Below are positions 60,701-63,700 of a DNA stretch of 64,000 nucleotides, one piece after another. Every line of letters begins with the position of its first letter. The first letter of the stretch is position 1. The DNA is taken from the NCBI RefSeq assembly GCF_054482595.1, contig NZ_CM137008.1, one strand, 5' to 3'. Made by a program: the position numbers.

Positions 60701-63700
60701 TTGCCCCCGGCGTCGCGGCACTACGGCAATAATCCGCATAAGCGAATGTTGCGAGCACTTGCAGTACCTTTGCCTTAGTATTTCCTTCAAGCTTTGCCAC
60801 ACCACGGTATTTCCCCGATACCTTGTGTGCAAATTGCATCAGATAGTTGATAGCCTTTTGTTTGTCGTTCTGGCTGAGTTCGTGCTTACCACAGAATGCA
60901 GCCATTCCGAATCCGGCTTGTGATTGCGCCATCCCCATAGCAGCCATCACATCAGTACCGGAAAGAGAGTCAGAAGCCGTAGCCCGTGGTGAGTCGCTCA
61001 TCATCGGGCTTTTTGGCGAATGAAATTTAGCTACGCTTTCGAGTCTCATCGTCTTCCCCTCTTGCCCTGTTTGACCATCAGGACGCCGTTAACTATTACA
61101 TGACGCTCGCCTTTGCTGTCTCGGTTGTACTTGAGCACTGTTCCTCTTGCGCAGGAAAGCATCCTTGCCACTTCGGTCTGATTGCCTCGTGTCTGGATAA
61201 GAAGCTCTGGTATCGTTTGAATTGTGGCGTTCATGCGTTCTCCAGTTCGGTGATTTTTATTCCAAGCCGTCCGCCTGGTACTTTCACACCACGAATTACG
61301 CGAATGTCATCGAATTGCTCGTCGTCTTCCGCAAATCCGGCGTGGATAAGGGAGTCGAGTAAACCTTTCAGGATATTATCGAGGTCGCGACGGCGGGAGT
61401 CTGGAACGTCTGCGATGACTTTGATGCGGAGTCGTGATTTGGTGAAAATATCTAACTTGAGTTGGTGGATGATTTGCTGAACGTCTTTTCGGTATTTCTG
61501 TCCTTTATCGCTGATGTAGTATTGGCTTCCCCGTCTTCGCCAGTAGGTATTCACCGACGGCGGGTATGGAAGCACAAACTGATATTCGTTCATGACTTAA
61601 TCTTCCCCTCCTTCAGCAGTATCGCCTGCGTCCTGATCACGCCTTCGAGGTGGTAAAGTCTGGCGTCTTTGTTGTCGAGGTTATGGGTGCGTCGGTCGAT
61701 TTCATCGTGACACGCGCTACAAGCCCATGCGCCGATCAGGTCGTCAGGCTTCATTCCCGTTCCGCAAATTCCAGCCATCCGGTAATGTGCCAGAACTGTA
61801 GTTTCAGGATTGCCATTGCATATGCCGTAAATACGTACCTAGCATTCTCTGCCGCGAGATTCTTTGCGTAGGTTAGCCATTAAGCAGCCTCCCCTGTTAC
61901 TTTCAGCATTCCGTTATCGAGCAGCTTTCTGGTCAGCCACTGTTGACCACGCCCGGTGATTTTTGTGGTGAACGATATCTGTATTCCGTGATTTGTGTTG
62001 ACCGCTGTTTCTTTCACTGTGAAATAGCCGCGATCCATATATTCCTGCATTGGCACATTGCGCCGGGAACCTGAAGCAATAAGGATTTTGTGATCGCGCA
62101 TCCACGCAAACAGTTTGTTTGGACCAATACCAACAACCTTTGCAAAGTTTCCAATCAAAATTCCGCTGGCCTCGCCAACGCGATCGGCAAACTCAACTTT
62201 AGGTGCGGCAATTGCGAGCTGGTTTTCCAGTTGCATTTTCTGCTCAGCAAGATCAGCAGCAAGGCGCAACGCTTCCGGTAACGTTTTGGGGATATTAACC
62301 GCAGTTTCTTCAAGCTCTCGCCAACGGTCAACAAGACGAGCGGTGAACTCTGGCGACAACTGGGCAACAACGACAATACTGTCTCGCTTACCTTGTTCGC
62401 CCTCGAAGACGTAATGCTCGTACTGAACATTGAACCCTAAGTTATTGATTCTTTCGGAAACCTCAATTTGAGGAAGCCGGATAACACCATTTTTAGCCAG
62501 CGTTTCGATGGTACGTTTCACATTGTCATGACGCTTACCCACCAACTCAGCTATTTCAATGCTTGTCATTTTGATGGCATTGCCATTTATTAACTCATTC
62601 ATCGTCTTCTTCCTCGTACATTGAGCTATTCGGATCGCTCATCAGTTCTGCGCAGCAGTGCTCACACACGTGAACTTCCAGCATATGCAGCTTCTGACCG
62701 CAGTTAGCGCACGTTAAAGCCCGCTCGACACTTCCTTGTTCGTAACTTCGATTTTGGTCAATCACCTTGTTTTCCTCGCACGTTCTCTAAGCCACCGGAT
62801 ATCCCACAGGTGAGCCGTGTAGTTGAAGGTTTTTACGTCAGATTCTTTTGGGATTGGCTTGCGTTTATTTCTGGAGCGCTTCGTTGGAAGGTATTTGCAG
62901 TTTTCGCAGATTATGTCGGTGATACTTCGTCGCTGTCTCGCCACACGTCCTCCTTTTCCTGCGGTAGTGGTAACACCCCTGTTGGTGTTCTTTCACATCG
63001 GAGACACCATCGATTCCAGTAAGGTTGATTTGGTCGGAAGCGGTTATCTTCTTTGCATTCACCGCACCGATAACATCGCATCATGCAGCCTCCCTCCCGA
63101 AGTCGAAATCAAGCTGCCCTCCAAATATTTCGCATGACTCAGAACAAGAGCCGGTATCGAATCTTTTAGCTCGTACCATGTCCTGATACAGGGCTTGATA
63201 ATCATTTTCTGAATACATTTTCGCGATACCGTCCAGCGACATTCTTCCTCGGTACATAATCTCCTTTGGCGTTTCCCGATGTCCGTCACGCACATGGGAT
63301 CCCGTGATGACCTCATTAAAAACACGCTGCAATCCCTCCTCATCTTTGCAGGCAAGTCCGATTTTTTGCGTTGATTTTTTAATGCAGAATATGCAGTTAC
63401 CGAGATGTTCCGGTATTTGCAAATCGAATGGTTGTTGCTTCCACCATGCGAGGATATCTTCCTTCTCAAAGTCTGACAGTTCAGCAAGATATCTGATTCC
63501 AGGCTTTGGCTTTAGCCGCTTCGGTTCATCAGCTCTGATGCCAATCCACGTGGTGTAATTCCCTCGCCCGAAATGGTCATCACAGTATTTGGTGAAGGGA
63601 ACGAGTTTTAATCTGTCAGTGCAGAACGCGCCGCCGACGTATGGAGTGCCATATTTCTTTACCATATCGATAAATGGCTTCAGAACAGGCATTCGCGTCT

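Follow-up and report, generated by a model that had tools for sequence, protein, structure and literature searches.

One end of a 64,000-nucleotide stretch of Escherichia coli DNA (NCBI RefSeq assembly GCF_054482595.1, contig NZ_CM137008.1), referred to throughout as the window, holds the distal portion of a delayed-early (nin) operon belonging to a lambda-like prophage. This operon, in a prophage lying next to torT, is best explained as a module of the type carried by phages HK620, HK97 and HK022, with the regulator Roi, the resolvase RusA and a ybcO-like gene broken by an amber codon; the probability of this reading is put at about 0.88. Open reading frame (ORF) calls over positions 60426-64000 place every gene of interest, from the end of ninB to Q, on the minus strand (Table 1).

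The strongest evidence is synteny, assessed by blastn of the window against lambda, HK97, HK620 and the prophage DLP12. HK620 (AF335538) gave a single unbroken match over 62937-60291 at 97.4% identity, running from ninE via ninF, roi, hkbD, rus, ninH and Q into the pR'/qut region with the same genes, order and overlaps as the window, and HK97 matched the same span, from ninE to past Q, at 94.3%. Lambda matched positions 64000-62600 at 98.8%, ending two bases from the roi start codon, and matched again only over Q (61059-60326, 97.8%), while DLP12 matched over 183 nucleotides (nt) of ybcO only, at 71.6%. The order in the GenBank records of HK620, HK97 and HK022 is identical (ninE, ninF, roi, hkbD/gp66, rus/gp67, ninH/gp68, Q), with 93-94% DNA identity to the window over ninF-ninH for HK97 and HK022. 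HK633, HK140, HK75, mEpX1 and other phages are likewise annotated with ninE-ninF-roi-gp66-rusA-ninH-Q, and their nucleotide identities are 93-97.6%. The ninF-ninH segment is covered to 80% or more in 29 phage records; among 5426 complete E. coli genomes, 548 reach the same level, and nearly all of the 80 IMG/VR loci with this Roi allele read NinF-Roi-YbcO-RusA-NinH. The IMG/VR scan recovered only Roi proteins that were 99-100% identical, and served for the surveys of synteny and of the amber codon, not for covariation.

A sequence-only reading of the window had described the nin region as mosaic. Since the same order is annotated in HK620, HK97 and HK022, and ninE-Q forms one continuous HK620/HK97-type block, the mosaic is not an unusual one. 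A new recombinant peculiar to this prophage might be proposed because the ninG-ninH-ninI segment of lambda is replaced and because, relative to HK620, in which ninB leads straight to ninE, lambda-type ninC and ninD have been added between them. However, the complete ninC-to-Q combination was found in 19 complete E. coli genomes, three of them at 100% identity, and the full NinB-NinC-NinD-NinE-NinF-Roi-YbcO-RusA-NinH-Q order in two of the 80 IMG/VR loci, which refutes the proposal and leaves it with virtually no probability; moreover, both junctions lie at gene boundaries, as expected of ordinary lambdoid module exchange. On sequence comparison, the region is a canonical HK-type lambdoid module that meets lambda-type ninC-ninD at a gene boundary. 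The module is already known; annotations of HK97, HK022 and HK620 have included it for some 25 years.

The gene content and coordinates given in the sequence-only reading agree with the ORF positions and Pfam matches. Its view that ninB-ninF and ninH-Q are lambda-like stands for ninC-ninF and for Q; it fails at the DNA level for ninH, which has no blastn match to lambda and is contiguous with HK620/HK97. Of ninB, only the last 16 codons lie inside the window. Lambda itself (ninB-C-D-E-F-G-H-I-Q) shares the delayed-early position and the ATGA overlaps, but has ninG (Rap) and ninI (phosphatase) and lacks roi, ybcO and rusA. The reported absence of ninG and ninI is borne out, as tblastn with lambda NinG and NinI over the entire 64-kb window returned no match at E<=1e-3. 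There is no space for ninI, since the ninH stop codon overlaps the Q start codon (ATGA), and ninI does not belong to this module type. The same ATGA overlap joins ybcO to rusA and rusA to ninH, roi and the ybcO-like gene share TAATG, and ninF and roi overlap by 8 nt; such overlaps and tight packing are a general trait of nin regions (PMC8022706).

Table 1. Features of the nin region and the adjoining late promoter, in window coordinates (aa, amino acids).
Feature	Position	Strand	Evidence
ninB 3' end, last 16 codons only	63950..64000	-	16/16 residues shared with lambda NinB (tblastn, 64000..63953); remainder beyond window edge
ninC, PAPS-reductase family, lambda type	63081..63953	-	100% identity to lambda NinC, 290 aa; Pfam PAPS_reduct
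ninD	62911..63084	-	Pfam NinD, E 1.8e-41
ninE	62762..62944	-	Pfam NinE, E 1.5e-44; continuous HK620/HK97 homology begins inside, at 62937
ninF	62595..62765	-	Pfam NinF; lambda homology stops at 62600, the ninF/roi junction (blastn)
roi, 240 aa, two predicted domains (Rha N-terminal, helical linker, KilAC C-terminal)	61880..62602	-	Pfam, PHROG, identity to Roi, AlphaFold (AF2)
Hypervariable patch of roi, codons 22-64, predicted helix-turn-helix and wing	62411..62539	-	DNA alignment; 12 roi translations
Perfect dyad CCTCAA-A-TTGAGG with its centre at roi nt 136, a candidate operator for Roi	62461..62473	-	Palindrome scan
Match to integration host factor (IHF) consensus within roi, AATCAATAACTTA	62438..62450	-	Match to WATCAANNNNTTR
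ybcO-like gene (HK620 hkbD / HK97 gp66; DUF1364, His-Me finger), amber-interrupted	61590..61880	-	Translation, Pfam YbcO
TAG (amber), codon 14 of ybcO-like gene	61839..61841	-	CAG in relatives
rusA, Holliday-junction resolvase	61231..61593	-	Pfam RusA, E 2.3e-16; PDB 1q8r, E 8.8e-26
ninH, HK97/HK620 type, 62 aa	61046..61234	-	Pfam Phage_NinH, 2e-24; 56% identity to lambda NinH
Q antiterminator, lambda type	60426..61049	-	Pfam Antiterm, 1.3e-57; lambda DNA 97.8% over 61059..60326
pR'-like late promoter TTGACT-17-TAAATT, downstream of Q	60355..60383	-	Promoter scan; lambda-/HK620-homologous stretch where HK620 annotates pR'

As in the phages with a named Roi, ninF is followed by a gene that precedes the junction-resolvase gene and Q, and alignment identifies its 240-aa product as Roi. 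It is identical to HK620 Roi at 239 of 240 residues, the sole difference being D190/E190, and shares 87% identity with HK97 Roi and 88% with HK022 Roi, the characterised member of the family. HK97 and HK022 carry another roi allele at codons 22-64, differing at 29 of 241 residues, almost all of them in this patch. The match to PHROG 63 has an E-value of 2.9e-99, and Pfam confirms the domains called from the sequence, Phage_pRha (PF09669) at residues 12-99 (E 6.3e-9) and ANT/KilAC (PF03374) at residues 126-228 (E 7.7e-33). A PDB sequence search with Roi found nothing at E<=1, and Foldseek of a Roi model against the PDB gave no match at E<=0.001. The AF2 model, built from a 12-sequence alignment, has a mean predicted local distance difference test (pLDDT) score of 76.6, with per-domain blocks mostly at about 70-91, and predicts two helix/beta-hairpin domains linked by a long helix at residues 108-132. 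The absence of a PADLOC match for Roi gives no support for a role in a known defence system.

The HK620 and HK022 records label Roi a DNA-binding protein, and citing papers credit Clerget & Boccard (1996) with the inhibition of lytic growth by Roi in IHF mutants. With a predicted winged-helix-like Rha domain at its N-terminus and a KilAC domain at its C-terminus, Roi would most likely be a site-specific DNA-binding regulator. As an orthologue of HK022 Roi, it would act with host IHF to modulate lytic growth, a role suggested by the 88% identity, the annotation of the records and the IHF consensus inside roi. The roi gene of the Stx1a phage Stx1_8100 (locus L088, 1501-2223) has an in-frame TAA at codon 44, and IS629 insertions in roi occur in a published set of Stx2a phages (PMC4587872), so that roi is evidently dispensable in nature.

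As in lambda, transcription would start at pR and reach the nin genes through N-mediated antitermination, after repression has been lifted. Their tight overlaps, with no promoter-like site or LexA box among them, point to pR transcription; promoter and terminator scans returned counts no higher than in shuffled sequences, the pR'-like site being the only meaningful match. This context bears on a suggestion in the sequence-only reading, that an antirepressor-like gene in this place could affect induction or act against other prophages. Taken further, the 240-aa protein would be a true antirepressor, able to bind and inactivate a CI-type repressor of this or of a co-resident prophage and thereby to alter induction. 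The homology behind the suggestion is real, so that the refutation named in that reading, a lack of antirepressor-like homology, does not apply: in addition to the ANT/KilAC match, PHROG families carry an anti-repressor label, Roi residues 73-234 are 57-67% identical to KilA/Ant1 regions of phage P1, and RefSeq names the protein 'anti-repressor'. However, these labels were transferred through the shared domain and do not come from an assay of the protein itself, and the Roi orthologue is described as DNA-binding. Known antirepressor genes are controlled by LexA or from a second immunity region, and no promoter of roi's own under either control was found: the overlap with ninF leaves no intergenic space, the scan placed no promoter-like site immediately upstream, and a search of 59.2-64 kb for LexA boxes with at most one mismatch gave no match. 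With roi so far down the pR operon, the protein should appear only after derepression. Furthermore, although the repressor gene of this prophage lies outside the window, the near-identical prophage of E. coli EC5502 encodes a LexA-family (S24) repressor of the self-cleaving type, which needs no antirepressor. The putative antirepressor function is disfavoured by the gene context, which speaks against a part in setting off induction and so weakens the earlier suggestion. A true antirepressor is improbable, and an effect in trans on other prophages during lytic growth would be about as improbable.

A second reading of the KilAC domain draws on AriS of the Listeria phage phi10403S, whose ANT/KilAC domain alone inhibits the SOS response; AriS-like proteins bear AntA/B, Bro-N or pRha N-termini, the combination of pRha and KilAC being the architecture of Roi (PMC9043618). 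Roi might similarly be a dual regulator, its KilAC domain damping the host SOS response and so coordinating or delaying the induction of co-resident prophages, and its N-terminal domain regulating phage genes. However, AriS, which shares the C-terminal KilAC domain, differs in its N-terminal domain (AntA/B) and comes from another host phylum, the Firmicutes, and its SOS effect is seen upon overexpression, not at native levels (PMC9043618); the most distant Roi relative seen, from Lacticaseibacillus, is 34% identical, and the SOS evidence is limited to Listeria proteins. An AriS-like function for Roi is accordingly held to be improbable, and a DNA-binding regulator of lytic growth is preferred.

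If Roi binds DNA, a candidate site lies within its own gene. Roi reportedly binds a site in its own gene near an IHF site. Allele diversity was taken from the tblastn spread of phage records and the translations of 12 roi genes, and at codons 22-64 (62411-62539) at least five allele types occur among phages, with near-identical flanking DNA. The window type carries the dyad as CCTCAAATTGAGG and the HK022 type has CTGCATTGCAG (roi nt 131-141); around the same centre, HK97/HK022 read CTGCA-T-TGCAG and PA51/HK629 read CCCCCA-A-TGGTGG (5/6 pairs), and pairs 133/139 and 134/138 are altered on both sides between alleles. The IHF consensus lies eleven bases (10 bp) downstream of the dyad and is found at the same position in four of the five allele types; matches to its pattern number only 5 in the 64 kb, a total not above that in shuffled sequences. 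The 2851/933W type lacks both dyad and IHF consensus, and in the Stx1_8100 allele the window dyad is broken by the same C-to-T change that makes its roi stop codon.

These features could make codons 22-64 a self-contained specificity cassette, encoding a recognition helix and wing and, about 25 codons downstream, containing a dyad operator bound by Roi beside the IHF site, with protein and site exchanged together. In its favour, the HK620/window, HK97/HK022 and PA51/HK629 types share the dyad centre and the adjacent IHF consensus. About 0.6 palindromes with arms of 5-6 bp are expected by chance in the 129-nt patch, so that the dyad alone is not significant; the shared centre and two compensatory pairs are suggestive, at a rough p of about 0.06 for features chosen post hoc. 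The pattern fits an allele-specific candidate operator beside an IHF site, as a lead only, and the cassette as a whole is a tentative and somewhat unlikely proposal.

Three considerations weigh against the regulatory side of the HK-type reading. The case for pR transcription draws on what is known of lambda and on a simple scan that showed no promoter-like sites, and the putative DNA-binding role of Roi is drawn from orthology and from citing papers. In addition, the IHF consensus overlaps the conserved I-N-x-L-G codons, and its retention may reflect protein constraint only.

The sequence-only reading had placed roi, together with the ybcO-like gene and rusA, in the ninG/rap slot. For roi that placement is not supported, since the Stx phages PA51 and 2851 and PhiR12_4 carry roi directly before ninG, with a ninI-type phosphatase next in 2851. 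The insertion of roi is therefore independent of ninG, which is replaced by the ybcO-like gene and rusA alone. The roi homologues of PA51, 2851 and PhiR12_4 (ant, roi, ninG, (ninH / pphA), Q) are 81-85% identical and lie in the same operon shortly before Q, but a second Ant-like gene precedes roi and the N-terminal patch is another allele. The assignment to the RusA family is confirmed by the Pfam and PDB matches. The protein is 44% identical to K-12 RusA, with D70, D72 and D91 (E. coli RusA numbering), the catalytic aspartates, aligned and conserved (RRRDLDN, DD). RusA is a credible functional substitute for lambda Rap/NinG and would resolve recombination junctions in its place.

The likeness to DLP12 noted in the sequence-only reading also holds. 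In DLP12 (ninE-ybcO-rusA-ylcG-quuD), ybcO and then rusA stand just upstream of the Q gene and belong to the same protein families, with matches to the structures 3g27 (YbcO) and 1q8r (RusA). DLP12 differs in having no roi, a quuD-type Q and ylcG in place of ninH.

The YbcO family assignment is likewise supported by Pfam; the gene, however, is interrupted, which had been missed. The 96-codon frame, which begins at the roi stop codon (TAATG), reads MANLRKESRGREC*VRIYG..., with TAG at codon 14. This codon is CAG in HK620, where hkbD is intact, and in HK97, K-12 ybcO and E. coli E2865, whose gene is identical over 291 nt except for the single C-to-T change (CAG to TAG). The Pfam YbcO match (6e-22, model positions 34-91) falls on a 62-aa ORF at 61590-61778, and an intact YbcO-like relative matches PDB 3g27 at E 7e-40. 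YbcO is classed as a His-Me finger protein with genomic neighbours that include RusA, Q and antirepressor protein (PMC5714182). For the identical EC5502 sequence, the PGAP annotation is limited to a product of 80 aa that begins at an ATT codon; this product lacks Cys13, and the 62-aa ATG ORF additionally lacks Cys21 and His32. The truncation suggests loss of function, and the YbcO-like nuclease would thus have been knocked out in this prophage lineage by the CAG-to-TAG change.

The exact 81-mer containing the TAG was found in five records from four strains (EC5502, SM107, 4FM and T28R) among the 5426 genomes, the hosts being human, mink and dog. Near-identical versions occur in about 200 other genomes, and E2865, the sole one checked directly, has CAG. 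The 64 anchored IMG/VR loci comprise 60 intact 96-codon frames, two with an insertion, one with ninG and one cut by a contig end, with no amber codon among them. In the two loci with an apparent insertion (L061 and L070), the YbcO-like frame departs after codon 10 into unrelated sequence. Sequencing error was ruled out as the cause of the amber codon, as four strains with independent assemblies all carry this TAG. Judged from these genomes, the mutation is real, recent and restricted to a lineage, and its occurrence in prophages of four strains from three host species suggests that the YbcO-like gene is dispensable.

In the wider window, positions 1 to about 29,600 are E. coli chromosome (efeU ... 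torT). The lambda-like prophage extends from about 30 kb onwards; its tail, head and Nu1 genes are of lambda type, and 55040-64000 is 99.99% identical to the prophage of EC5502. The prophage end adjoins torT at about 29,600-30,200 and the integrase lies outside the window; the torS-torT region is the attachment site used by HK022. Between the tail-fibre assembly gene and torT, on the plus strand and thus opposite to the late genes, are ORFs at 30227-30829, 31173-32210 and 32618-33877 (200, 345 and 419 aa), for which neither Pfam nor PADLOC gave a match and which are labelled 'hypothetical' in EC5502; their place beside torT is typical of cargo such as accessory or defence genes.

The lysis cassette (58725-59867, minus strand) is not that of lambda. 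It comprises a 67-aa holin of the HP1 family, a 167-aa lysozyme with a hydrophobic N-terminus, possibly of the signal-anchor-release type, and then Rz/Rz1, and is about 90% identical to DLP12 rrrD/rzpD despite a lambda-type Q and pR' upstream. A low-GC island (31-42% GC) separates the lysis genes from Nu1. It carries, on the plus strand and thus antisense to the late operon, a YlcI/YnfO-like gene (DUF3950, 57533-57766) and a YbcV-like gene (DUF1398, 57808-58233), an arrangement also found in DLP12. In E. coli SM107, a ninC-Q segment 100% identical to that of the window is found on a 111-kb non-chromosomal record (NZ_CP130669.1, 42450-46007), which may represent a phage-plasmid, a prophage that has excised or an artefact of assembly.

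An Rfam scan of 56-64 kb at the gathering threshold found no RNA families. A terminator-like hairpin inside roi (62180-62164) was set aside as within chance expectation, and antisense or alternative-frame ORFs at 61100-61480, 62115-62414 and 61650-61871 (plus strand) and 62155-62430 (minus strand), which have no family match, were taken to be shadows of the real genes.

The nin region of this prophage is an instance of textbook lambdoid mosaicism, in which two alternative junction-resolvase cassettes, ninG and ybcO with rusA, are exchanged. The 'antirepressor' annotations on Roi are labels transferred with a domain. Furthermore, the amber allele provides a ready natural mutant with which to ask what YbcO does beside RusA.

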